A stretch of DNA of 12,517 bases, taken from the IMG/VR virus record IMGVR_UViG_2531839668_000004, positions 1 to 12,517 of that record, one strand, 5' to 3'. The stretch comes from a virus. Lineage: Duplodnaviria; Heunggongvirae; Uroviricota; Caudoviricetes. The translations under genes were made by a program, and so were the position numbers. This document shows positions 872 through 12,517 of this stretch, one piece after another. The number at the start of each line of letters is the position of its first letter. The stretch's first letter is position 1. The notes beneath the pieces are model-generated. The model worked only from the letters and a program-made list of their open reading frames with translations, had not been told where the DNA came from and searched no databases.

Positions 872-2355
872 CAGGCTGCCCTCACGATATAGTTAAATGC
901 GACGTTGCGCGGCCGGGTTTCAGAACCACCAACCGATACCGTAGAAATTGAATTTGCCGTAATAAGTTCCCCGAAAGCATCAGCCGTAACTACGAACCGA
1001 CCTCCCGTTGGATCAAAACTTTTTAGCGCATAGTACTGGTCAAACCAGTGCCCATGAGAAGCAAATAAATGGTCTTGAGATGTCAACAAACCACGAGAGG
1101 AATCCACCCCGCGCCCATCATCCCATCCACGAATAAATTCACCGCGTAAATCAGGCAATTTATTTGTCGGGTAAGCCTTTGCCAGTTCCGGGTATTCTTC
1201 AGCAGAAAAAGCCGCACCATTGCATTTCAACCAGCCTGTTGGCGGAGTGGCTGAAGGCCACGGAACAGGCACCCCAACAGGTAATGCTGAGCCTTCTCCC
1301 AAACCAAGGTATGTGAGAAGACCAGCTACATCCTTTCCACTCAAATTAGTCAGCGTATTGTCCAGCGGTTGTTTACCTGCCAGCGCATTAAGCATTGTCG
1401 TGGCAAAGTTCGGGTCATTCCCCAGAGCTGCCGCCAGTTCGTTCAGTGTATCCAGTGCCGCAGGTGCAGAACCCACCATTGCCGCAATCGCCGATTTCAC
1501 AAATGCCGTGGTGGCAATCTGTGTATTGTTGACCGACTGTGCCGCCGTGGGGGCTGTTGGCGTTCCGGTGAGTGCCGGACTCGACAACGGTGCTTTTAGT
1601 GCCAGCGCATTGTTAATGGTGGTACTGAAATTCGGATCATTGTTAATGGCTGCGGCTATTTCTTTCAGCGTGTCCAGCGTGGCTGGCGCACCATTAATAA
1701 GGGCCGTCAGTGCCGCCTGTACAAACGCAGTGGTCGCAACCTGCGTGGTATTATTCCCCGCCGCTGGCGTTGGCGCTTTGGGGGTTCCGGTAAATGTCGG
1801 GCTGGCTTTTGGCGCGTACTGTGAATGCGGGTCCGGTGCGGCAAGATGTTTTGCCATCTGATCATCCGCGTACACCTTCAGCTCCAGTGCCTTGTCATCC
1901 ACATACTTGCGAGTTGCCAGCACTACAGCAGGGTCGATTTTCAGGGTGATATTGTCCGTGCTGCTGGTAATCAGCACCATGCGCACGGTCTGAGTGCGCC
2001 CGCTACCTTCAGCCAGTTGCGGCTTATAGCTTTCCGGGCAGTTGCCCACGGCAATCAATGCCCCGGACTCATCAAACAAGCCCACTTCACGTATCCACCA
2101 ACCGCCCTCGTTTTCAGGGATCACCTGTTCGGCAATAATCTGGCTGCTGTTCTGCGGGTCGATATAAAGCATATTCAGCGCAGCCCGGCGTTTCTCATTT
2201 ACCAGTGCCGTCTGCTTTGCGTCCGGCGTTGGCAATACTCCACCGCCATCGCCCACCGCCATATGGGTAATTTTTAGCGGCACACCGAGCGCGGCGGCGC
2301 TGGCAAGTTTCGCCGCGCCAATATCCGTCAGCAGGGTATAAAATTTTGTGCTCAT
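871..2355 (-). CDS. H: Tail fibre protein (P2 gpH-like): conserved N-terminal domain, duplicated Ala-rich shaft repeat, variable receptor-binding C-terminus
   Basis: 494-aa ORF. N-terminus MSTKFYTLLTDIGAAKLA...MAVGDGGG...ESYKPQLAEGSGR resembles the P2 H N-terminal domain. Internal ..ATTAFV..DTLNELAAALGNDPNFATT..NALAGKQP repeat and C-terminal ...ETRPRNVAFNYIVRAA are typical of side tail fibres. Start overlaps I stop. Confidence 0.9.
   Translation of the reverse strand: MSTKFYTLLTDIGAAKLASAAALGVPLKITHMAVGDGGGVLPTPDAKQTALVNEKRRAALNMLYIDPQNSSQIIAEQVIPENEGGWWIREVGLFDESGALIAVGNCPESYKPQLAEGSGRTQTVRMVLITSSTDNITLKIDPAVVLATRKYVDDKALELKVYADDQMAKHLAAPDPHSQYAPKASPTFTGTPKAPTPAAGNNTTQVATTAFVQAALTALINGAPATLDTLKEIAAAINNDPNFSTTINNALALKAPLSSPALTGTPTAPTAAQSVNNTQIATTAFVKSAIAAMVGSAPAALDTLNELAAALGNDPNFATTMLNALAGKQPLDNTLTNLSGKDVAGLLTYLGLGEGSALPVGVPVPWPSATPPTGWLKCNGAAFSAEEYPELAKAYPTNKLPDLRGEFIRGWDDGRGVDSSRGLLTSQDHLFASHGHWFDQYYALKSFDPTGGRFVVTADAFGELITANSISTVSVGGSETRPRNVAFNYIVRAA
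1294..1319. other. Candidate serine-invertase crossover site (hix/gix/cix-like 26-bp imperfect palindrome) inside gene H
   Basis: TTCTCCCAAACCAAGGTATGTGAGAA has the AAACC-AAGGT core and TTCT...AGAA flanks of Hin/Gin/Cin/Pin sites, about 19 of 26 positions matching hixL as I recall it. It encodes LTYLGLGEG at the boundary between the conserved and variable parts of H. Confidence 0.5.
1385..1790. repeat. Diverged tandem duplication (two units of about 200 bp) inside H encoding the repeated Ala/Thr-rich shaft motif
   Basis: Protein repeats TQVATTAFVQAALTALINGAPATLDTLKEIAAAINNDPNFSTTINNALALKAP and TQIATTAFVKSAIAAMVGSAPAALDTLNELAAALGNDPNFATTMLNALAGKQP; the corresponding DNA segments are visibly similar. 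Boundaries approximate. Confidence 0.5.
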
Positions 2356-2957
2356 GGATTCACTCTCATTGTGTCAATAACATGGACCGCCCCGCCTTCA
2401 TGCGCGGTGCCACCGGAAATAATCGTTTCGTTGATATACGGATAGATCGTGATTTCTTCGCCAAGATAGCTGGCGGCTCCCACCCAATGCGGGCCGCTGG
2501 TCTGCAGATTGATGGACATGCCGATCATGTGGCGGCTACATGGTTTGGCATCGCTTATCAGTCGCTCAAGTTCCAGATAGGTATCTTCAGTGATGCCCTG
2601 GTCCTGCACGCCGATATCCAGGCGAAACGTGCCCGGTGTTTCTCCGGTCTGCCACCACTCAATAATGCGGATCAGGAATCCGAACGGCTCCACCACCCGC
2701 CGCACGGCACTGGTGGTCCCTTTATGCTGATGAATATAAAAAGCATCCTTCACCACCTGGCGCTTGACGCTTTCTGTCCAGCCCTCGTCCCAGCGATCCA
2801 CAGAGAACGCCCAGGCGAGATAAGGCAGGAAACTGACCGGACAGGTTGCCGGATTCCACAAGTCACGAAGCGGCACCTGCAGATCAGAAATCCCGCTGCA
2901 GGTTTGCGCCAGTCGGCGCTCCAGTGGTGTTGAACCCGGTGGCAGCAGACTATTCAT
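2352..2957 (-). CDS. I: Baseplate assembly / tail protein I (P2 gpI-like)
   Basis: 201-aa ORF between J and H in P2 order; overlaps J stop and H start, indicating translational coupling. Assignment is by position and size. Confidence 0.85.
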   Translation of the reverse strand: MNSLLPPGSTPLERRLAQTCSGISDLQVPLRDLWNPATCPVSFLPYLAWAFSVDRWDEGWTESVKRQVVKDAFYIHQHKGTTSAVRRVVEPFGFLIRIIEWWQTGETPGTFRLDIGVQDQGITEDTYLELERLISDAKPCSRHMIGMSINLQTSGPHWVGAASYLGEEITIYPYINETIISGGTAHEGGAVHVIDTMRVNP

Positions 2958-3858
2958 CCGTTCCTCCGTTGGTTACGCTCCACTGCGTACATGATGCCGC
3001 CTGTGTTTTGTTCAGGACCACATCCGCCAGAGGAGAAGCCAGCTCCACACGCTGCACCCCCTCAACATGCAGGGCGGCAAAGATGGCGCTACGGCGAATA
3101 TCCCGACCAAGACGCGTCTGACTGGCGATGTACTTCTGCAGGCTGGCTTTTGCCGCTGCCATTACCGGCTCTGCTTCCGGTCCAGGATAGAGAAAAATGG
3201 TGGCTTCCACGCGATACGGGATGATTTCTGCGCTGCGAACCGTCAGACGGTCAGCCACCGGGCGGACGTTCTCACTGTTCAGAGCTTTTTCCACCACGTC
3301 CAGCAGGTCTTTTTCTGCAGTTCCATCGCCTTCGCGGCTAAGGACAGTCAGCACCACCTCTGCAGGTGCCGGGCTGGTTGCACTGGCATCCGCCACCCGA
3401 CCGTCGGCGCTTCGGGCATGAAATTCATAAGCTGCAGTTGGCCCCGCAACAGAAAGCCCTTCAAAGGCTGCAGGCACACGCAGGCGCAACGCTTCATCGC
3501 TTTCCATCACAGCTGCAACCGGCGGCACAGCATCATTATCAGCAGGCGTCACCGTCAGGCGTGTCACGTTGTAGTTGGCAGCGAGCTGGTCAAGATCGCC
3601 GCCCATCGCGTAAGCCACCATCACCGCCTGCGCGGCTTCGTTAATGCGCTGGCGCAGAAGCAACTCACGGTAAGCGTTCTCCTGCAACAATTTAGTGGCG
3701 GGTTCAGATTCCAGTTCCAGCGTGCGGATCACTGCTTCCTGCTCATCTTTCGGATGAAGCGCCACAAATTCTGCCTTGCGTTCGGCAAGCAGCGTCTCAA
3801 AGTCCGGCACATCCACAATCTGCGGTGCAGGCAACTGTGAAAGGTCAATCACTGCCAT
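2950..3858 (-). CDS. J: Baseplate assembly protein J (P2 gpJ-like)
   Basis: ORF track gives 2950..3897, but the likely start is the internal ATG (MAVIDLSQLPAPQ...) at 3858, preceded by an AGGAG ribosome-binding site and giving 302 aa, the size I recall for P2 gpJ. The longer version would overlap W. Confidence 0.85.
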   Translation of the reverse strand: MAVIDLSQLPAPQIVDVPDFETLLAERKAEFVALHPKDEQEAVIRTLELESEPATKLLQENAYRELLLRQRINEAAQAVMVAYAMGGDLDQLAANYNVTRLTVTPADNDAVPPVAAVMESDEALRLRVPAAFEGLSVAGPTAAYEFHARSADGRVADASATSPAPAEVVLTVLSREGDGTAEKDLLDVVEKALNSENVRPVADRLTVRSAEIIPYRVEATIFLYPGPEAEPVMAAAKASLQKYIASQTRLGRDIRRSAIFAALHVEGVQRVELASPLADVVLNKTQAASCTQWSVTNGGTDE

Positions 3859-4204
3859 TCTCTGCTCCTGTTGATACGGAAAGGGACACAGGCACACCGT
3901 TATTCCGCCGCCCGGTCAGCTCCACCACCATTGAACCGTCAAAATTGCTGTTGATGGTGATGGAATCCAGCGTCAACCGTGGCTCCCAGCGACTCAGCGC
4001 CACATACACTGCCGACATGACCTGCAGGCGTAATGCCGGATTTTGTGGCTGATCTATCAGTGCCGACAGCAGGGAACCATATTCCCGGCGGGCAATACGG
4101 CTACCCTGCGGTGTCAGCAGAATGTCCCGCACCGACTGGCGCAGATGATCAATATCAGTAATGACTTTGCCGCTGGTATTGTTCATCCCGCTATAAAGCG
4201 TCAT
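3845..4204 (-). CDS. W: Baseplate wedge protein W (GPW/gp25 family)
   Basis: 119-aa ORF between V and J; start overlaps V stop (ATGA). Size and position match P2 gpW. Confidence 0.85.
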   Translation of the reverse strand: MTLYSGMNNTSGKVITDIDHLRQSVRDILLTPQGSRIARREYGSLLSALIDQPQNPALRLQVMSAVYVALSRWEPRLTLDSITINSNFDGSMVVELTGRRNNGVPVSLSVSTGAENGSD

Positions 4205-4779
4205 ACCGGGCCTCCGGTTGTATCGCCGCCTTTCAGGACGCCAGTATGCTGATGCGCATCAACCACGATCCCGTTAGAACTCATCGCTCCGCCGCCCTGG
4301 ATAACGCCACCATTGATCACCACTTCGCTGTTAATACGCGTGCGGTCAGCCTCCAGTACAAACTCACTGGTTTTCATGGTGATGTTGTCAGCAGCCTCAA
4401 TGACCATTGATTTGATGCCCCTGACATACCAGCGCCCGGTGGCGGGTTCGTATTCAAACCAGCCACCGTCAGGATGTTCTGTCACGCAGGCGTCCGCCGA
4501 CGTCGACGGTGGTGCGAACTGATTCGAATAGACAGCGGGCAGCGCAAAGGCGGTTTCCAGATTGCCGCCCAGACTCAGCAGCACCACCTGCTCACCTTCC
4601 GATGGTCGCCACCATGTACGGGCATTCCCGGCACGCAGCGTCAGCCAGCTGATCCAGTTGGTTTCAAGCTCGCCCGTTTTCACCCGGCAAAGCCAGTTTT
4701 CCCGGTCCACTTCGGTGACTACCCCTGTGCGGATCAGGTTGGTGATAAGGCGCATGATTTCGGTTAATTGTGCGTTCAT
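4201..4779 (-). CDS. V: Baseplate central spike / assembly protein V (P2 gpV-like)
   Basis: 192-aa ORF; N-terminus MNAQLTEIMRLITNLIRTGVVTEVD resembles the P2 gpV N-terminus as I recall it. First gene after a 68-bp intergenic gap. Confidence 0.85.
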   Translation of the reverse strand: MNAQLTEIMRLITNLIRTGVVTEVDRENWLCRVKTGELETNWISWLTLRAGNARTWWRPSEGEQVVLLSLGGNLETAFALPAVYSNQFAPPSTSADACVTEHPDGGWFEYEPATGRWYVRGIKSMVIEAADNITMKTSEFVLEADRTRINSEVVINGGVIQGGGAMSSNGIVVDAHQHTGVLKGGDTTGGPV

Positions 4780-4825
4780 AGGGAAAGGTTGCCATCAGAG
4801 GAAGAAAGGCGGCAGTGCTGCAACT

Positions 4826-4843
4826 TGTATCAGTGCTGATACA
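4826..4843 (-). promoter_or_regulatory. TGT-N12-ACA dyad in the S-V intergenic region; candidate Ogr/Delta-type late-activator site of promoter P_V
   Basis: TGTATCAGTGCTGATACA: perfect 9-bp arms of dyad symmetry, 5 nt after the S stop and about 55 bp before the V start codon. P2-like late promoters carry a TGT-N12-ACA element, and P2 has a late promoter in front of V. No clear -10 hexamer seen, and the spacing to the ATG leaves little leader. Confidence 0.4.
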
Positions 4844-4847
4844 AAGA

Positions 4848-5294
4848 TCACCCCGCCAGCCATTGCAGAATCATGTCGCGGGTCATTGCCTCAACATCAT
4901 CATTTACACCCAGAAGGCGACGCTCTGCGTAACGCACCTCCGGTCCCTTACGACTGACGCGATCTCGCAGGCCGTAATGGTGAACGCGGGCAATGCGCTG
5001 CACCTTGCCTTTAAACTGCACGCTGGCAGAGTCGGTGCTGGCGGCAGTTTTCAGGTATTTTGTGGTGCGCAGCTTTGCAAACATCTGACGTTTGATACGG
5101 CCTTTTTTACTGCGTGCTGTTACCCGTCGCGGTTCATAGCTGCTGCCGTCAGGGTTGCGCTGCATCCTGATATTCTGCTGCTGTGTCCGGCGAAGTTCCT
5201 GCGCCAGCTGGCGCATCATGCGGCTTCTCGAGGCTGGTTCCAGATTCGCCAGCAAGGCACTCAGCCAGTCGTCCACCTTCTGCAGTTCAGCCAC
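4848..5294 (-). CDS. S: Tail completion protein S (P2 gpS-like virion morphogenesis protein)
   Basis: 148-aa ORF downstream of R with an 8-bp overlap; size and position match P2 gpS. Confidence 0.85.
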   Translation of the reverse strand: MAELQKVDDWLSALLANLEPASRSRMMRQLAQELRRTQQQNIRMQRNPDGSSYEPRRVTARSKKGRIKRQMFAKLRTTKYLKTAASTDSASVQFKGKVQRIARVHHYGLRDRVSRKGPEVRYAERRLLGVNDDVEAMTRDMILQWLAG

Positions 5295-5739
5295 GTTTCA
5301 CCGTCCACATTTCTTCAGGTGCATCAGGTTCCGCTATAGCTTCAACGCTCGACACACTGCCGTCAGTGCTGACCAGCACACGTTCCGTCAGTTGCAGGTT
5401 CAGGCTGATATCACAGACATCGTTGCGCAGAATATCCACCTCAAAGGTGAATAGCTTTTCCCGTAACGCCGGGTTATTGATGGCATCGGGCTGGTTATCC
5501 CTCAGCCACAGCAAAACCGGGGCCATCAGCAGATTCTGGTCGCCGCTGAAATCTTCAATCACCGCGTTCAGGGTGTAACGGTACTCCCACGACATGGAGC
5601 TGGCCCCCGTGGCAACCAGCGAACCGTTATCCACAAACAGATGCAGTTTGTCCGGGTTATTGCGGACATAAGGCACCGCTTTATTGAGGGCGTGGCGCAG
5701 GGATTGTGGTTTGTTCACTGTTTCGCTCCTGACACGCAA
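5287..5739 (-). CDS. R: Tail completion protein R (P2 gpR-like)
   Basis: 150-aa ORF; size and position between the lysis genes and S match P2 gpR. Confidence 0.85.
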   Translation of the reverse strand: MRVRSETVNKPQSLRHALNKAVPYVRNNPDKLHLFVDNGSLVATGASSMSWEYRYTLNAVIEDFSGDQNLLMAPVLLWLRDNQPDAINNPALREKLFTFEVDILRNDVCDISLNLQLTERVLVSTDGSVSSVEAIAEPDAPEEMWTVKRG

Positions 5740-5971
5740 TAATCATGTCCACTTTGTCTGCACAGACCGCCCAGGCGGCCTCCGTTTCATCCAGCAACGC
5801 GTTCAGATCACCGTTAGTGCGCGGCGCTGCCTGATCCAGCCGACACGGCGTCACTCGCGGACAACCACTGACGGTAAGCTGCACCTCCGGTGAGCGTCGG
5901 ACGTTCCCGCAGCCGGATAATGTCAGCAGGCAAAGGAGTATCAGCCCAGCGGCGTAAATCCTCGTTCTCAC
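5681..5971 (-). CDS. lysC: Outer-membrane spanin lipoprotein (P2 LysC / Rz1-like), starting inside lysB in another frame
   Basis: 96 aa; N-terminus MRTRIYAAGLILLCLLTLSGC is a signal peptide with a lipobox (LSGC), followed by a Pro-rich region. The ORF starts within lysB and runs past its stop into the 5' end of R. Confidence 0.75.
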   Translation of the reverse strand: MRTRIYAAGLILLCLLTLSGCGNVRRSPEVQLTVSGCPRVTPCRLDQAAPRTNGDLNALLDETEAAWAVCADKVDMIIACQERNSEQTTIPAPRPQ

Positions 5972-6242
5972 GTTTCAGTTCCTCAATCCGATGTTGTCGT
6001 TGTCTCAGCAGCGCGCTGGTCTGTTCTGCTTCGGCATAGAGCCGCGCCTGCTCCCGGTTATTGGTTTCAGTCAGAATGGACAGGCTGATAAGCTGGCTGT
6101 TGCTCTTTGCCAGTGCCTGGCTTTTGCTCCGCAGCTCGTCTGCCTGCGTGCTGATGGTCTGGCTGGCATCAGCCAGCCGCCACGTCTGCCAGCCCAGCGA
6201 CGCCAGTAATAACGCCAGCACAACCAGCAGCAACCGGTTCAT
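5814..6242 (-). CDS. lysB: Inner-membrane spanin (P2 LysB / Rz-like)
   Basis: 142 aa; N-terminal transmembrane segment MNRLLLVVLALLLASLGWQ followed by a charged, coiled-coil-like region (EELKRENEDLRRW). Start overlaps lysA stop. Confidence 0.8.
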   Translation of the reverse strand: MNRLLLVVLALLLASLGWQTWRLADASQTISTQADELRSKSQALAKSNSQLISLSILTETNNREQARLYAEAEQTSALLRQRQHRIEELKRENEDLRRWADTPLPADIIRLRERPTLTGGAAYRQWLSASDAVSAGSGSAAH

Positions 6243-6616
6243 GCTGCTACCTGTTGCGCCATCTGGTTACGAGTGATCCAGAAGGCAATAACGGTCAGCA
6301 GATAAAAGACCAGGGTAATGGCCCACCCCGTCCAGGCGAGACTTACGACAATCAGCAATCGCATAACCCAGCTGATAAATACGTTTTCTTTTCGGGTAAT
6401 GCTCTTCAGCAAAGATGCCCTCAACTCCTGCCAGAGCGGGCCGTTCTTAATTAACGCAACCAGTGCTACCGGAATTGCCCCCCATGTCAGCAGGCAGGCT
6501 ACCCAGACACCGGACGCTGCCAGTACCGGAAAAATCCCCTGCGGATACACCATTGCTGCGATTAACAGCGCCATCCATAACATCAGAAACAGTCCGCTGA
6601 TTAATTTCTTTTTCAT
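6239..6616 (-). CDS. lysA: LysA-like membrane protein of the lysis cassette
   Basis: ORF track gives 6239..6688; the likely start is the ATG at 6616 (MKKKLISGLFLMLWMALLIAAMV...), one nt after the K stop with a GGGAG ribosome-binding site. Several hydrophobic helices; sits between K and lysB as in P2. Confidence 0.75.
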   Translation of the reverse strand: MKKKLISGLFLMLWMALLIAAMVYPQGIFPVLAASGVWVACLLTWGAIPVALVALIKNGPLWQELRASLLKSITRKENVFISWVMRLLIVVSLAWTGWAITLVFYLLTVIAFWITRNQMAQQVAA

Positions 6617-6617
6617 T

Positions 6618-7130
6618 TCAGTTTGCTCCCTGTAAACACCAGGCCATCTCCCGCGCACGGCGGTTATCCAGCCCCTGATTAAACACACCTTTTACATAAA
6701 CCCAGCGCGGCAACTGTCGGCACGCATCCGCCCAGCGCCGCTGATTGAGCAATTTCACCAGCGTGGAGCTGCAGGCATTGCCCGTCCCCACGTTGAAGGC
6801 AAACGACACCGTAGCGTCATACACCTTCTGTGGTGGCTGTTGCTTCACACACCTTTCCAGTGCCCGCTCCACACGCAGCACGTTGGAGATCAGCCCTTCT
6901 GCTGCCTGTCGTTCCGTGATTGTTTTGCCGGGAATGACGCCCGATGTATTACCAATGCCGTCGGTCCAGACACCCGCGCTGCACTGATACGGCTGCAGAC
7001 GACAGCCTTCGTAATCGGCAATCAGTTTCAGCCCCTCCACGGAGGTGTGAAGCTGCTGAAAACCCGGCAGCGTGGCAGCAATAGCCAGCACAGCCCCGAC
7101 AAGGCAGCGTTTAACGATTGATGGATTCAT
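6618..7130 (-). CDS. K: Endolysin (T4-lysozyme-like muramidase) with an N-terminal signal-arrest-release (SAR) type anchor; P1 Lyz-like
   Basis: 170 aa; weakly hydrophobic Gly/Ala-rich N-terminus MNPSIVKRCLVGAVLAIAATLPGF, then EGCRLQPYQCSAGVWTDGIGNT, i.e. an E-x8-C-x5-T catalytic motif closely resembling the P1 Lyz sequence as I recall it. Confidence 0.85.
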   Translation of the reverse strand: MNPSIVKRCLVGAVLAIAATLPGFQQLHTSVEGLKLIADYEGCRLQPYQCSAGVWTDGIGNTSGVIPGKTITERQAAEGLISNVLRVERALERCVKQQPPQKVYDATVSFAFNVGTGNACSSTLVKLLNQRRWADACRQLPRWVYVKGVFNQGLDNRRAREMAWCLQGAN

Positions 7131-7326
7131 AGTCCTCCCGCGAGATCTGCCCGTCGCGCAGAAGCTGGTAGGCTTTGTGTTTGTAGTACCAGTTGATAGC
7201 CAGCATCAGCACACCGATCATCAGGCCGCCCAGCGTTGAGGCATCCTTGATGGACAAATCGCCCAGCCAGGCCAGCACGACGGCGATGCAATACGTGATA
7301 AAGGCGCTGATTCGCTCAAGCGTCAT
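7111..7326 (-). CDS. Y: Holin (small two-transmembrane holin, pinholin-sized), P2 gpY position
   Basis: 71 aa with two hydrophobic helices (ISAFITYCIAVVLAWLG and LGGLMIGVLMLAINWYY) and a charged C-terminus; immediately upstream of, and overlapping, the endolysin gene. Confidence 0.8.
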   Translation of the reverse strand: MTLERISAFITYCIAVVLAWLGDLSIKDASTLGGLMIGVLMLAINWYYKHKAYQLLRDGQISREDYESINR

Positions 7327-7329
7327 AAT

Positions 7330-7533
7330 TCAGTCCCATAGCTGGACGGTCTGCACGGTGGTGGTTGTCGGAATGTCCGGCAGCTCCACCTGCAGCCCGT
7401 GAGGTAAAAAGGGGCCGTATTCGGCAAGCCCCGGATTTGCCTTCAGTACCTGCTCCGTGACACCCTGCGTGCGCCCGTAATGACGCCAGCAAAGCGCGTC
7501 CACCGTGTCATACTGATGCGCACGCACTTTCAT
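7330..7533 (-). CDS. X: Tail protein X (P2 gpX-like, LysM-like)
   Basis: 67 aa, the size of P2 gpX; MKVRAHQYDTVDALCWRHYGRTQGV...ANPGLAEYGPFLPHGLQVELPD resembles gpX as I recall it. Confidence 0.85.
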   Translation of the reverse strand: MKVRAHQYDTVDALCWRHYGRTQGVTEQVLKANPGLAEYGPFLPHGLQVELPDIPTTTTVQTVQLWD

Positions 7534-7997
7534 CAGATAAGCTCCACTGTGCAGTGCGGCGCATCCTGCACCCGACTGATGGCCCAGCGGGCGTCACGCC
7601 ACAAATCACCGCTGGATTCCGCCAGTTCCTCGCCCCGCTTCACACCGGATGCCGTGGCGTCATAGTCCTGGTAACGTTCGTTGAGCATGGCGCGTGCCCA
7701 GCAGTAAACCGCGTTGAAATAGTGCTGAATGCGCTCGCTTTTGCCGTCCAGTTGTTCCGCCGGGACTTCTGCCAGCGAGGCATACCCCAGCATCTGCTGG
7801 CGTCTGCGAAACTCATACAGCTCTGCGTTGACCTCCGAAATTGCCGACAGCGCAACCTGCTTTAAACGCGGCTGCGTCACCGTGCCGTCAGTGCGCATCA
7901 CGCTGCGAAACTCCGACGGGTCCACATCAGGCCAGAACGGCGTGTTTCTGATGATTTCCGCCTGTTCCGGTGCCTGTTCTGGCGCAACAAACTTCAT
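7533..7997 (-). CDS. L: Head completion / stabilisation protein L (P2 gpL-like)
   Basis: ORF track gives 7533..8060 from a GTG; the ATG at 7997 (MKFVAPEQ...) has an AGGAGA ribosome-binding site about 7 nt upstream and is the more likely start. Precedes X as in P2. Confidence 0.8.
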   Translation of the reverse strand: MKFVAPEQAPEQAEIIRNTPFWPDVDPSEFRSVMRTDGTVTQPRLKQVALSAISEVNAELYEFRRRQQMLGYASLAEVPAEQLDGKSERIQHYFNAVYCWARAMLNERYQDYDATASGVKRGEELAESSGDLWRDARWAISRVQDAPHCTVELI

Positions 7998-8190
7998 GCT
8001 GCTTTCTCCTGAAATAGAGGGCGGTGGACGGGATTTTGATGTGGCTGTGCCTTTCGCCACCCCGTGCCGCCCGTGCGCGGGGGCACGTTCTGTCAGCGGC
8101 TGTCATTGCGCAGTCTGCGCTCCAGCTGCTGTTTGTCTTTTTTCACGCCACAGCGGGGATCGAGCTGTAACGCATGGTTGAGATGGTTAA

Positions 8191-9375
8191 GGGCAGAAGG
8201 CACAGGCTCACGTCTTTAAGCAGTACATCATCGACTTCGCCAAAGAAGTGGAGGTGGAGCTGAAAGGCGATCCGATGGTGCTTCCTAACGGGGCCACGCT
8301 TTACTTCCTCGGCACCAATGCCCGCACGGCCCAGAGTTATCACGGCAACCTGTATCTGGATGAATATTTCTGGATACCGAAATTCCAGGAGCTGCGCAAA
8401 GTGGCTTCCGGTATGGCTATTCACAAGAAATGGCGACAAACCTATTTTTCCACGCCATCCAGCCTGACACACAGTGCTTATCCGTTCTGGTCCGGTGCGC
8501 TGTTCAACCGTGGGCGCAACAAAGCCGATAAGGTGGACATCGACCTGTCCCACAGCAATCTGGCTCCCGGCCTGCTGTGTGCAGACGGGCAGTACCGCCA
8601 GATAGTCACTGTGGAAGATGCGGTGCGCGGCGGCTGTAACCTGTTCGACCTCGACCAGTTGCGCATGGAGTACAGCCCGGACGAATACCAGAACCTGCTG
8701 ATGTGTGAGTTCGTGGACGATCTCGCGTCCGTATTCCCGCTCAGCGAGCTGCAGGCGTGCATGGTGGACAGCTGGGAAGTCTGGACCGACTTTCATGCAC
8801 TGGCCCTGCGCCCGTTTGGCTGGCGCGAAGTATGGATCGGTTATGACCCGGCGAAAGGTACGCAGAACGGCGACAGTGCCGGATGCGTGGTGGTGGCTCC
8901 GCCAGCCGTGCCGGGCGGTAAGTTCCGCATTCTTGAGCGTCACCAGTGGCGCGGGATGGACTTCCGCGCCCAGGCGGACGCCATCAAAAAACTGACCGAA
9001 CAGTACAACGTGACCTATATCGGCATCGACTCGACAGGTGTAGGTCACGGGGTTTATGAGAACGTGAAAGCGTTCTTTCCTGCCGTCCGGGAGTTTGTTT
9101 ACAACCCCAACGTTAAAAACGCCCTGGTACTCAAGGCCTACGACATTATCAGTCACCGTCGTCTGGAGTTTGACGCCGGACACACCGACATCGCGCAGTC
9201 ATTTATGGCAATCCGTCGCGCCACCACCGCCAGCGGCAACCGCCCGACCTATGAAGCCAGCCGCAGCGAAGAAGCCAGCCACGCCGATCTGGCCTGGGCA
9301 ACGATGCATGCACTGTTTAACGAACCGCTGCAGGGTGAATCCGCCAATACCAGCAATATTGTGGAGATTTTTTGA
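8191..9375 (+). pseudogene. P: Terminase large (ATPase) subunit P, N-terminally truncated: only about the C-terminal two-thirds is present
   Basis: The frame opens right after a TAA at 8188-8190 and runs to 9375 (about 394 codons, versus about 590 aa that I recall for P2 gpP). No N-terminal Walker A region is present; LYLDEYF is Walker-B-like. Stop overlaps the Q start (ATGA). Divergent from L, with nothing in between. Confidence 0.7.
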
Positions 9376-10418
9376 TGGGAAAGAGTAAGAAAAACCGCGC
9401 TGCGGCGACGAATCAGCTCAAGCATAAAAACCAGACTTCAGCCGAAGCATTCAGCTTCGGCGATCCCGTTCCGGTTCTGGACCGCCGTGAACTGCTGGAC
9501 TATGTGGAATGCGTACAGACAGATCGCTGGTATGAGCCGCCAGTGAGTTTTGACGGACTGGCGCGTACCTTTCGCGCCGCCGTGCACCACAGCTCACCGA
9601 TTGCAGTGAAATGCAACATTCTGACCAGCACCTACATCCCTCACCCGCTGCTCAGCCAGCAGGCTTTTTCACGTTTTGTGCAGGACTATCTGGTTTTTGG
9701 TAACGCCTACCTGGAGAAACGCACGAACCGGTTCGGTGAAGTTATCGCCCTTGAGCCTGCTCTGGCAAAATACACCCGACGCGGATTAGACCTGGATACC
9801 TACTGGTTTGTGCAATACGGTATGACAACCCAGCCGTATCAGTTCACGAAAGGCAGCATTTTTCATCTGATGGAACCGGATATTAATCAGGAGATCTACG
9901 GCCTGCCCGGCTATCTTTCTGCCATCCCATCCGCTTTGCTCAACGAGTCCGCCACGCTGTTCCGCCGGAAGTATTACATTAACGGTAGTCATGCAGGCTT
10001 CATCATGTACATGACCGATGCCGCGCAGAACCAGGAGGATGTGAACAACCTCCGCAATGCGATGAAAAGCGCCAAAGGTCCAGGCAACTTCCGCAACCTG
10101 TTTATGTACTCGCCTAACGGCAAAAAGGACGGGCTTCAGATCATCCCGTTGTCAGAAGTTGCGGCGAAGGATGAGTTTCTGAATATCAAGAACGTGAGCC
10201 GTGATGACATGATGGCTGCGCACCGCGTGCCGCCGCAAATGATGGGGATTATGCCTAATAATGTTGGAGGGTTTGGGGATGTGGAAAAAGCCGCGAAGGT
10301 TTTTGTCAGAAATGAGTTGGTTCCTTTGCAGAAAAGACTAGTTGAGCTAAACACCTGGATAAATCAAAATATTGTGTCATTTAATGACTACATCCTTGAC
10401 CAAGATAAGGGCATTTAA
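9372..10418 (+). CDS. Q: Portal protein (P2 gpQ-like)
   Basis: 348 aa, close to the size of P2 gpQ; coupled to P by an ATGA overlap. The last roughly 35 codons are encoded by AT-rich DNA. Confidence 0.85.
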   Translation: MMGKSKKNRAAATNQLKHKNQTSAEAFSFGDPVPVLDRRELLDYVECVQTDRWYEPPVSFDGLARTFRAAVHHSSPIAVKCNILTSTYIPHPLLSQQAFSRFVQDYLVFGNAYLEKRTNRFGEVIALEPALAKYTRRGLDLDTYWFVQYGMTTQPYQFTKGSIFHLMEPDINQEIYGLPGYLSAIPSALLNESATLFRRKYYINGSHAGFIMYMTDAAQNQEDVNNLRNAMKSAKGPGNFRNLFMYSPNGKKDGLQIIPLSEVAAKDEFLNIKNVSRDDMMAAHRVPPQMMGIMPNNVGGFGDVEKAAKVFVRNELVPLQKRLVELNTWINQNIVSFNDYILDQDKGI

Positions 10419-10429
10419 TGCCCTTTTTT
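10407..10429 (+). terminator. Intrinsic terminator hairpin shared by the convergent Q and membrane-protein genes
   Basis: AAGGGCAT-TTA-ATGCCCTT stem-loop followed by a T-run; the Q stop codon lies in the loop, and the converging minus-strand gene ends at 10415. Confidence 0.6.
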
Positions 10430-11206
10430 ATCCTCATAAGCAACGTCATCGTATAATTTTAAGGCACCTAAATCATGTAATTGCTGCTTGAATTCCTTAC
10501 TTAAACTAAACCCCTGAAGGAGAGAATATTTTTCAATAAATTTCTTGGCAGGCTTTCCTACCGATGAAAAACCATTTAATAGCATCGCGCCAGATTCTAT
10601 AGAAGATATTTGTGCTCTAACTAATTTCGCATACTTGGTTTTTTCTTTCTCAGTCAAATAGTTAGAGTCGTTGATATGTTTAAAAATATGGTAAATATTC
10701 CTGAAATAATGTCCCACATTCGCAAAATTGTCACCTTCCAGATAAACCATATTAACTGAAAGCTCTAACCTTTCATCCAAAGGAAGTGAATCATCCACAA
10801 TATTAAGTAGGTTAAACTTCACTTCGGTAATGTATAATGAAAGAGCCTCTCGTCCTACATACACTTTTCCATCTGAATACGTTGTTTTAATTTCTGATAA
10901 GTTATCTTTATGAAATCTTAGTAACTCAAATAACACAGACTCGAATGACTGAATAGATGACTGCCTGGATGTAGAATATAGTGTGAAACAAACAAGCATG
11001 ATAGAGATAAAGGCCAGAGCAGGATTCAGTACACCACCAATATAATCGCCAAACTGTCCCCATTTCTCTACGGAATCACTCCATGAATACATTCCAAATT
11101 TACAAACATAGCTAACAAACACTATCAGCATTAAAATAAAAGCCAAAAACAACAGTGAATAAATAATGGCATAACGCTTAATATTTCGAAGAATGGCACC
11201 ACACAT
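10415..11206 (-). CDS. Membrane-anchored protein of unknown function (two N-terminal transmembrane helices plus a roughly 190-aa soluble domain); cargo gene
   Basis: ORF track gives 10415..11272 (285 aa), but that start overlaps the ASCH gene by 55 bp; the internal ATG at 11206 (MCGAILRNIKRYAIIYSLLFLAFILMLIVFVSYV...) avoids this. Second hydrophobic helix LNPALAFISIMLVCFTLY. AT-rich codon usage unlike the phage module. Confidence 0.6.
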   Translation of the reverse strand: MCGAILRNIKRYAIIYSLLFLAFILMLIVFVSYVCKFGMYSWSDSVEKWGQFGDYIGGVLNPALAFISIMLVCFTLYSTSRQSSIQSFESVLFELLRFHKDNLSEIKTTYSDGKVYVGREALSLYITEVKFNLLNIVDDSLPLDERLELSVNMVYLEGDNFANVGHYFRNIYHIFKHINDSNYLTEKEKTKYAKLVRAQISSIESGAMLLNGFSSVGKPAKKFIEKYSLLQGFSLSKEFKQQLHDLGALKLYDDVAYEDKKGH

Positions 11207-11217
11207 CTCACAATACC

Positions 11218-11595
11218 TTATATATAATCCATATTTAAATCTATTGTATAAATACCTTTCCTCGCCACACAAGGAATAGATTTTTTTAAAGTTCTAACAT
11301 TTTTAATTTCCCACACATAATAACCTGGAGACCAAGGCTTATTAAGAGTTGTTTCTTGGTTTTGTTTTAAGTAATCCTCATATGACCAATTTCTAACTGA
11401 AACAAAATCGACAATAGCCATAGCCACCCCATGATCTATATCGCTTTGATTTTTAAGATATTTATCATTCTGAACAAGAATGACGTTTTTTAATGGTATC
11501 GTTTCAGGATACCACGACCGTATTTCGATAGATTTAGAACCATTTATAATATTTTCTACCGCTGGAGTCAAAATCGATATAGCTTGAAACTTCAT
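11218..11595 (-). CDS. ASCH-domain (PUA-like beta-barrel) protein
   Basis: 125 aa; N-terminal ISILTPAVENIINGSKSIEIRSW contains the ASCH signature G-x-K-x-x-E-x-R. GAGGA ribosome-binding site before the start; AT-rich; upstream of and co-oriented with the membrane protein gene. Confidence 0.7.
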   Translation of the reverse strand: MKFQAISILTPAVENIINGSKSIEIRSWYPETIPLKNVILVQNDKYLKNQSDIDHGVAMAIVDFVSVRNWSYEDYLKQNQETTLNKPWSPGYYVWEIKNVRTLKKSIPCVARKGIYTIDLNMDYI

Positions 11596-11660
11596 GCTCT
11601 ATCCTCTACTATGCTAAGGCTATAACATTCTAACATAAATAAATAAACGGAGGTAATACT

Positions 11661-12206
11661 ATGTTAATTTTCATAGCAGGTGTTCATGGTGTAGGCAAAG
11701 GTTACTTGTGTTCATTTGCAAAAGATGATTTCGGGGTAACTCATGTAAGCGCAAGCGAACTTATAAAAAATAATTCTAATATTAAATTTGATAACAGTAA
11801 GTTAACGGCCACACCTGATAAAAACCAATCAATATTACTTACGGCACTTAATGCATTAAAGTCAAAGGTATCCAATATTTTATTGGATGGTCATTTTACC
11901 TTAATAAATAAAAATGGAGATATTGAAGTTCTCAAGCAAGAAGTATTTGAGGAAATGGGGCTAGATGGAGTAATTTTAGTTGAGGAGTCTCCCGATACAA
12001 TTAGAGAACGAATAATGAAACGAGATGGGAGTGATATTACTTATGATTTAAATAAGCTGATGGAAGCTGAAAGAGAAAACGCAAAATATGTTACAAATAA
12101 AATCAATGTACCATTAATTATCTTAGAATCCCCAACAACAAACGATTTATCTATTGCTCTAGAAAAACTGGGCATGGTTAAGAAACATGCCCAGATAACA
12201 TTATAA
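11661..12206 (+). CDS. Small P-loop NTPase, nucleoside/nucleotide-kinase-like
   Basis: 181 aa; Walker A MLIFIAGVHGVGKGY at the extreme N-terminus and a Walker-B-like hhhhD (ILLDGHF), the layout of small adenylate/shikimate-type kinases. GGAGG ribosome-binding site 7 nt upstream. Divergent from the ASCH gene across a 65-bp AT-rich gap. Confidence 0.65.
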   Translation: MLIFIAGVHGVGKGYLCSFAKDDFGVTHVSASELIKNNSNIKFDNSKLTATPDKNQSILLTALNALKSKVSNILLDGHFTLINKNGDIEVLKQEVFEEMGLDGVILVEESPDTIRERIMKRDGSDITYDLNKLMEAERENAKYVTNKINVPLIILESPTTNDLSIALEKLGMVKKHAQITL

Positions 12207-12517
12207 ATAACGATAAGACTGTGGGGCGACGCCGCCGGGAATCAACTCATTTAAGTCGACAGGGAATTTATATCTTTTAGGGCTTTTGATGGAAATAGCA
12301 AAAGCCTTTTCTCTTTGGTGGAAATAATCTTTAAAAAAAGAATGTGTAATTCCTGCATGAGCTTTCGTTTTATCCCACAATTCTGAAGGGGATAGAGCAA
12401 GAATATCTCCTACTTTAAATTCACCTATTACTTTGCCAACCGGCATCGTTGCGTAAATAACTATCGTATCAACATTTTTATTTCTAAAAATATTTTTCCG
12501 AAACTCATATTTTTTTA
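12201..12517 (-). CDS. Partial ORF (C-terminal part; N-terminus beyond the right window edge), unknown function
   Basis: ORF track shows 12201..12446 (81 aa), but the frame appears open upstream to the window edge (..DTIVIYATMPVGKVIGEFKVGDILALSP...). Convergent with the kinase gene, overlapping it by 6 bp. AT-rich. Confidence 0.5.
   Translation of the reverse strand, partial: KKYEFRKNIFRNKNVDTIVIYATMPVGKVIGEFKVGDILALSPSELWDKTKAHAGITHSFFKDYFHQREKAFAISIKSPKRYKFPVDLNELIPGGVAPQSYRYL

Follow-up and report, generated by a model that had tools for sequence, protein, structure and literature searches.

The ogr-D' remnant of K-12 is a cryptic P2-like prophage of E. coli, and R-type tailocins (e.g., R-pyocins) are P2-derived clusters that have tail and lysis genes and no capsid. 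Prophage decay and domestication are reportedly pervasive, with rapid inactivation by deletion and retention of host-useful genes, as Bobay, Touchon and Rocha are said to have described in 2014. In the P2 record itself (NC_001895), the O operon comprises O, N, M, L, X, Y, K, lysA, lysB, R, and S, the P operon comprises P and Q, one activator site is annotated for the divergent promoters P_O and P_P, and a terminator, tQ, follows Q.

We compared these systems with a 12,517-nt stretch of DNA, referred to here in its entirety as the window. Megablast searches of phage and E. coli collections identified it as the late region of a P2/186-type E. coli prophage, with 94 to 100% identity to annotated P2-family genes. 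Late gene order is that of P2 and 186, with Q-P divergent from (O-N-M-)L-X-Y-K-lysA-lysB-R-S-V-W-J-I-H-G, and the protein families are those of the group (portal, GPL, tail X, holin, lysozyme, R, S, V, W, J, I, and tail fiber); DNA identity to annotated P2-family prophages is 95 to 100%. TGT-N12-ACA dyads and a tQ-like terminator are shared with P2, as is a P protein 64% identical to P2 gpP over residues 198 to 590. Early genes read in an intact relative (CI, CII/CP76, Fil, and Tum/DinI-like) are those of 186. In contrast to both phages, the window lacks M (all but 35 codons), N, O, P_O/P_P, and P codons 1 to 196, so that the module for head formation and packaging (Q, P, O, N, M, and L with divergent P_P/P_O) is no longer complete; it also differs in the cargo island between Q and cos and in an invertible tail fiber segment. 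We conclude with considerable confidence that a single, recent 3,189-bp deletion occurred in a 186/P2-type (Peduoviridae) E. coli prophage, with consequences that can be predicted from P2 biology.

The intact relative and the deletion junction

Among 5,426 complete E. coli genomes, the best match to the whole window was a prophage of E. coli 31B19CPO012, which aligned in two pieces spanning 14,413 bp of the subject against 11,224 bp of the query. This prophage is intact, and its flanks are 99.97 to 100% identical to the window on both sides. By blastn and in ungapped registers, positions 1293 to 8199 of the window correspond to positions 3001 to 9907 of the intact relative (locus L002), with 2 mismatches in 6,907 bases, and positions 8197 to 12516 correspond to L002 13094 to 17413, with none in 4,320. 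These two mismatches (G versus A; 2531 in gene I and 7918 in gene L) are the only differences over 11.2 kb. The relative is annotated, in P2 order, with L, M (216 aa), N, O, a 142-bp spacer, P (588 aa), and Q. Exactly 3,189 bp of it (L002 9908 to 13096) are absent from the window. This segment covers M codons 1 to ∼181 (∼84% of M), all of N (major capsid) and O (scaffold), the 142-bp divergent P_O/P_P late-promoter region between P and O, and P codons 1 to 196 of 588 (the 5' 588 to 591 nt). The first-pass annotation, made from the window alone, had proposed that M, N, O, and the 5' third of P were missing and that the P/O divergent late-promoter region had gone with them; direct comparison of sequences, which leaves no room for a chance pattern, bears out both proposals, and alignment to the intact relative puts the junction at 8197 to 8199 (Table 1).

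Table 1. Features of the window and re-used deletion ends in related prophages (ends are named on the intact reference L012)
Feature	Position	Strand	Basis or remark
TGT-N12-ACA dyad upstream of V	4826-4843		Only late-promoter activator site left in the window
Surviving distal O late operon (S to L)	4848-7997	-	All ORFs intact; P_O gone
S	4848-5294	-	Relative's annotation
R	5287-5718	-	Relative's annotation
lysC	5681-5929	-	Relative's annotation
lysB	5814-6242	-	Relative's annotation
lysA-like	6239-6616	-	Relative's annotation
Endolysin K	6618-7130	-	Relative's annotation
Holin Y	7111-7326	-	Relative's annotation
X	7330-7533	-	Relative's annotation
L, head completion	7533-7997	-	Pfam Phage_GPL; ORF open; relative's annotation
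Native L-M spacer, 95 bp	7998-8092		Collinear with L002 9706-9800
M remnant, stop plus last 34-35 of 216 codons, 107 nt	8093-8199	-	Identical to L002 9801-9907
Deletion junction	8197-8199		AAG, 3-bp microhomology common to M and P sides; both alignment registers match
Large terminase P', codons 197-588 plus stop	8197-9375	+	100% identical to L012 26612-27790
Portal Q, intact, downstream of promoterless P'	9375-10418	+	Pfam Phage_portal; annotation transfer
Terminator-like hairpin after Q, counterpart of P2 tQ	10407-10425	+	P2 record annotates tQ after Q
Cargo island adjoining Q	10415-12517		Pfam, PADLOC, relative's annotation
putAbiC/AbiC-like gene	10415-11206	-	
ASCH gene	11218-11595	-	
AAA_17 kinase-like ATPase	11661-12206	+	
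PDC-M11B-like/ASCH gene	12201 to beyond 12517	-	PADLOC candidate PDC-M11B
Re-used end	D7184		L007, L010
Re-used end	T9570		L008, L011
Re-used end	V19528/9		L001, L005
Re-used end	O25080		L003, L008
Re-used end	P26332/3		L010, L001
Re-used end	P26556/7		L006, L005
Re-used end	P26612		L007, window

Collinear flanks identical to an intact relative, breaks inside essential ORFs, and the absence of a mobile element characterize the window as part of a defective prophage. Neither filler DNA nor an IS end, an att core, or an invertase (cix) site was detected at the junction by sequence comparison; fold analysis found no significant structure there, and Rfam gave no match. Allowing one gap, the two sides are similar at 6 of 7 positions (CAGAAG versus CAGTAAG). 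The few shared bases, with neither extended homology nor a site-specific recombination site, are those of microhomology-mediated illegitimate recombination: microhomology-guided joining would have made the deletion, with one partner in M (CAGAAG, 107 nt from the end of the gene) and the other in P (CAGTAAG, codon 196-197). Other routes were considered and set aside. An IS or transposon at the junction was ruled out by the absence of extra DNA. Secondary sites of the integrase or invertase were ruled out by the att core (ATGGGTTTTTTGTT) and the AA-core cix-like site, both of which are unlike the junctions. A CRISPR type I-E reading of AAG as a PAM was dropped because the putative PAM and protospacer are still present after the deletion.

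Genes flanking the junction and lost late promoters

On the M side, L truly starts with an ATG at 7997; the longest ORF, opened by a GTG at 8060, extends beyond it. The L-M spacer contains a GC-rich dyad (∼8063 to 8087) with a fold z-score that is not significant. A minus-strand frame ending at 8093 to 8095 had earlier been guessed to be the tail of M, and the guess was right: 8093 to 8095 is the M stop codon and 8096 to 8098 the last codon (R), the identical stretch of L002 lies inside an annotated “phage terminase small subunit,” and the translated remnant, PSALNHLNHALQLDPRCGVKKDKQQLERRLRNDSR followed by the stop, aligns to P2 gpM residues 186 to 214.

On the P side, the frame opens at 8191, as the first-pass annotation had read it, because a TAA at 8188 to 8190, inside the M remnant, closes it upstream; P-derived DNA begins at 8197, and the first possible starts of P' are a GTG at 8248 and an ATG at 8275. 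In Pfam, P' matches Terminase_6N from profile position 36 only (the first 35 positions are lost) and Terminase_6C in full, and the intact P of the same lineage additionally has an N-terminal Terminase_5. The deleted part of P thus includes Terminase_5 as well as a Walker-A-like SRQIGAT segment, the latter identified in the P reference sequence, where it precedes the junction.

A normal alternative arrangement, in which a short terminase starts at ∼8191 and the capsid genes lie elsewhere, had been named in advance as what would overturn the reading of a defective element. Such an arrangement would account for the open frame from 8191 and for nothing more. However, the intact terminases of this lineage are 588 aa long, their start falls 588 nt upstream of the junction, and the intact relative has O, N, and M between L and P. 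Of the 10 architectures shown for prophages with identical Q and cargo, 9 are likewise intact, P being 588 aa long with O, N, and M next to it. Moreover, the sequence upstream of 8191 is M in antisense, ending in TAA, and the Terminase_6N match is cut within its profile. The intact relatives refute the alternative arrangement, and we give it practically no credence. Returning to the deletion, DNA packaging and the formation of infectious particles should be impossible because the element has lost its capsid, its small terminase, and, from the large terminase, the N-terminal part (Terminase_5 and Walker-A), which agrees with the earlier view that the element is defective and could not package DNA on its own.

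The effect of the deletion on transcription is predicted to reach further than the genes it removed. In the intact relative, TGT-N12-ACA dyads precede FI and V, and another is found within the P/O spacer (L012 13986, 20052, and 25960); this last one fell within the deleted segment. The genes from S to L, whose coordinates come from the annotated relative (99.97% identical; offset, +1708), retain open frames. Near the junction, no replacement sigma-70-like promoter was found above chance. L, X, the holin and endolysin genes, lysA/B/C, R, and S are probably cut off from P_O, and their switch-on by Ogr/B would be gone with it; P' and portal gene Q would likewise be left without P_P. After induction, the Ogr/B response would then be limited to the P_V operon and presumably the P_F operon. 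It is conceivable that read-through from minus-strand cargo genes, across antisense Q and P', might still express the L-to-S genes.

These considerations qualify one further statement of the first-pass annotation, according to which the tail and lysis module remains complete. The lysis and tail completion ORFs in the window are indeed intact, but with P_O lost their expression is doubtful. Since P_O is deleted and these genes belong to the O operon, production of tail particles is doubtful as well. Completeness of the tail as a whole is a matter beyond the scope of the window, since FI, FII, E, T, U, and D fall beyond its limits, as do the immunity region and int.

The P/O spacer has diverged too far from that of P2 for an informative alignment. 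Separately, the sequence AGGCGGGGAAAGC in the relative's P/O spacer (L012 25983 to 25995, deleted in the window) equals positions 5 to 17 of the P2 cohesive end, a correspondence that could be due to chance.

Cargo, tail fibers, and assignment of the element

Convergent with Q, the cargo island overlaps the stop codon of that gene. The corresponding slot in relatives is occupied by retron, DprA/PRTase, GmrSD, KAP NTPase, or DarT-macro cargo. No cos was found in the window; a cos-like sequence, GGCGTGGCGGGGATACG...GCGCGCTGA, lies on the minus strand at L012 32198 to 32216, ∼1.3 kb past the window end. Because this sequence lies beyond the cargo island, the cargo of the relative sits between Q and cos. 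At the other end, positions 1 to 1310 are inverted with respect to the intact relative (L012 15993 to 14683). The 18-bp overlap, CTTCTCCCAAACCAAGGT (1293 to 1310), is the cix/gix-like site of an invertible tail fiber segment, and a gene for a Cin-like recombinase adjoins this segment in the relative. In the orientation seen in the window, H (871 to 2355, 494 aa) and the tail fiber assembly gene (269 to 871) are intact.

We considered whether loss of the head and packaging genes was adaptive, the element having been domesticated as a tailocin-like producer or as a safe carrier of defense cargo and immunity genes. Such selection would fit the intact tail, baseplate, and lysis ORFs within the window, the AbiC-like and PDC-M11B-like genes in the cargo adjoining Q, and the tendency of degraded relatives, which very often retain P'-Q, cargo, and early genes and lose structural genes. 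However, P_O, which serves the holin, endolysin, X, R, and S genes that a tailocin would need, was also deleted. Unlike evolved R-type tailocins, the window keeps the portal, head completion gene L, and a terminase stump, its lysis and tail completion genes are promoterless, and there is no sign of long-term upkeep as a tail-only cluster. Near-zero divergence from an intact phage, together with a unique junction, shows no history of selection. We regard domestication as improbable. An assignment as a phage satellite (P4-like or PICI) fares no better: the P2 baseplate and fiber genes are present in the window as a full set, and satellite genes are absent from it.

Instead, as judged from gene content and alignment, the element is best described as an ordinary, recently inactivated defective P2/186-like prophage. 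It resembles the cryptic P2-like prophages of E. coli (that of strain 1409 and many others), in which morphogenetic genes are lost, and other modules kept, through internal deletions at short or no homology, in that P is truncated and Q and cargo are retained. In contrast to these relatives, the window has one small deletion, apart from which it is 100% like an active-looking phage, and carries a junction present in no other searched genome. Compared with pervasive prophage decay and domestication as a process, it differs in nothing essential and would be a single example. The element would thus be non-packaging and probably non-lysing, with its cargo genes still aboard. For annotation, it should be scored neither as an intact prophage nor as a tailocin: the P2-like prophage of this strain would be dead as a virus, having no capsid, no terminase, and probably no induced lysis, while candidate anti-phage cargo persists. 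By itself, a single deletion matters little.

Frequency and end points of deletions in related prophages

The exact junction is known from one sequence, the window. A 141-bp probe gave no continuous match in the 5,426 complete E. coli genomes or the phage collection, and 23- to 32-nt probes gave none in GTDB representative genomes, JGI metagenomes, and IMG/VR. The identical portal protein, in contrast, is listed in 577 blocks of the index, and prophages with this portal and cargo are widespread. Given 2 mismatches in 11.2 kb, a unique junction, and a lineage that is normally intact, the event reads as recent and private, and of a known kind. Uniqueness of the junction among all collections searched and identity of the flanks to an intact prophage would also be expected of an assembly or sequencing artifact, in which an intact prophage was present and 3.2 kb was dropped in assembly. 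However, mis-assembly is unlikely: with only 3 bp in common, the break points offer no repeat for an assembler to collapse, and very similar natural deletions exist in independent complete genomes; we consider an artifact very improbable.

Deletions of this kind are common. Of 1,237 records that matched a query of P plus its upstream spacer, 1,076 reached a query coverage of at least 80% and ∼13% did not; the low-coverage records in a sample of 60 (eight) were all truncated P genes. The block lost from the window was deleted independently in strain 1409 (L001; 2,885 bp) and in L024 (3,058 bp), the latter with a 10-bp microhomology, GGAAGCCGGA.

To place such events on a common scale, ∼30 deletion junctions of degraded 186-like prophages (att sites ybjL and ssrA) were mapped on the intact reference L012 (loci L001, L003, L005 to L011, L014 to L017, L024 to L029, and L038); many of the loci came from an exact P'-ORF look-up, which biases right end points into a window of ∼180 bp. 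In one metagenome scaffold (L004/L018, locus 9884 to 9893), a scaffold gap of 10 N, not a deletion, divides P into ORFs of 166 aa and 366 aa. Half-junctions were re-used at nucleotide resolution, with different partners, in independently degraded prophages (Table 1). The dinucleotide TA lay within the microhomology ±2 nt in 17 of 26 junctions called by hand, against 13% expected by simulation (P ∼ 1e-9), and in 13 of 25 with an automated junction caller (P ∼ 4e-6). Among 2-nt microhomologies, TA accounted for 6 of 8 to 9, against 1.4% expected. Flanks of the used TA sites were GC-rich on both sides (71% GC, compared with 50% for all 1,287 TA sites), and most crossovers fell on an isolated TA. 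Junction palindromes had arms of at least 3 bp in 3 of 12 cases and are probably a by-product of these GC-rich flanks.

These patterns raise the possibility, which we put forward tentatively, that the deletion is one product of a non-random, enzyme-driven decay of 186/P2-like prophages. Cleavage at T/A would be carried out by a type IA topoisomerase (TopA, C-N-N-T/A) or another TA-specific activity, and the cleaved end would then be joined to a second TA site or to a microhomology. In vivo, topoisomerase I of E. coli cuts at a TA that follows a C by four nucleotides (Sutormin et al. 2022; PMC9352719). The published motif of the enzyme is AT-rich. Among other candidates, the targets of IS5 (YTAR) and IS630 (CTAG) do not fit the used TA sites, and gyrase with a 4-bp stagger fails to reproduce the observed junction bases.

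For the window in particular, an enzyme-initiated break would mean that the P-side end (CAGT/AAGG; bottom strand, CCTT/A) is a preferred TA-specific cleavage site, e.g., of topoisomerase I. The same P nucleotide ends an independent deletion, joining FI to P, in a 94.5%-identical prophage (L007), TA occurs at the crossover far above chance across the ∼30 junctions, and a later test case (L038; microhomology GTAT) fits as well. When the C-N-N-T/A pattern was applied, the P site had C four nucleotides upstream of TA on both strands, but its partner on the M side of the window has no TA, and the AAG microhomology explains the junction adequately. Enrichment of C at -4 among used sites was modest (42% versus 27%; P = 0.008), with a neighboring position enriched at least equally, and the GC-rich flanks of these sites differ from the AT-rich published motif. 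Most loci, moreover, stem from the P'-ORF look-up, with its bias on right ends. We consider an enzyme-initiated break at this P site rather unlikely, and the link between topoisomerase I and the TA pattern is only a lead. If the enzyme-driven view were true, inactivation of E. coli prophages would have a definable molecular signature and hot spots. Should the TA and end point pattern hold, it would offer a testable handle on natural prophage inactivation, one that could outweigh the single deletion described here.

The M sides of the three independent M'-P' deletions (window, L024, and L001) also end close together, within 26 bp of one another (window 8199; L012 23425 to 23448). All three ends lie 10 to 40 bp from the GC-rich dyad of the L-M spacer (window 8063 to 8087).
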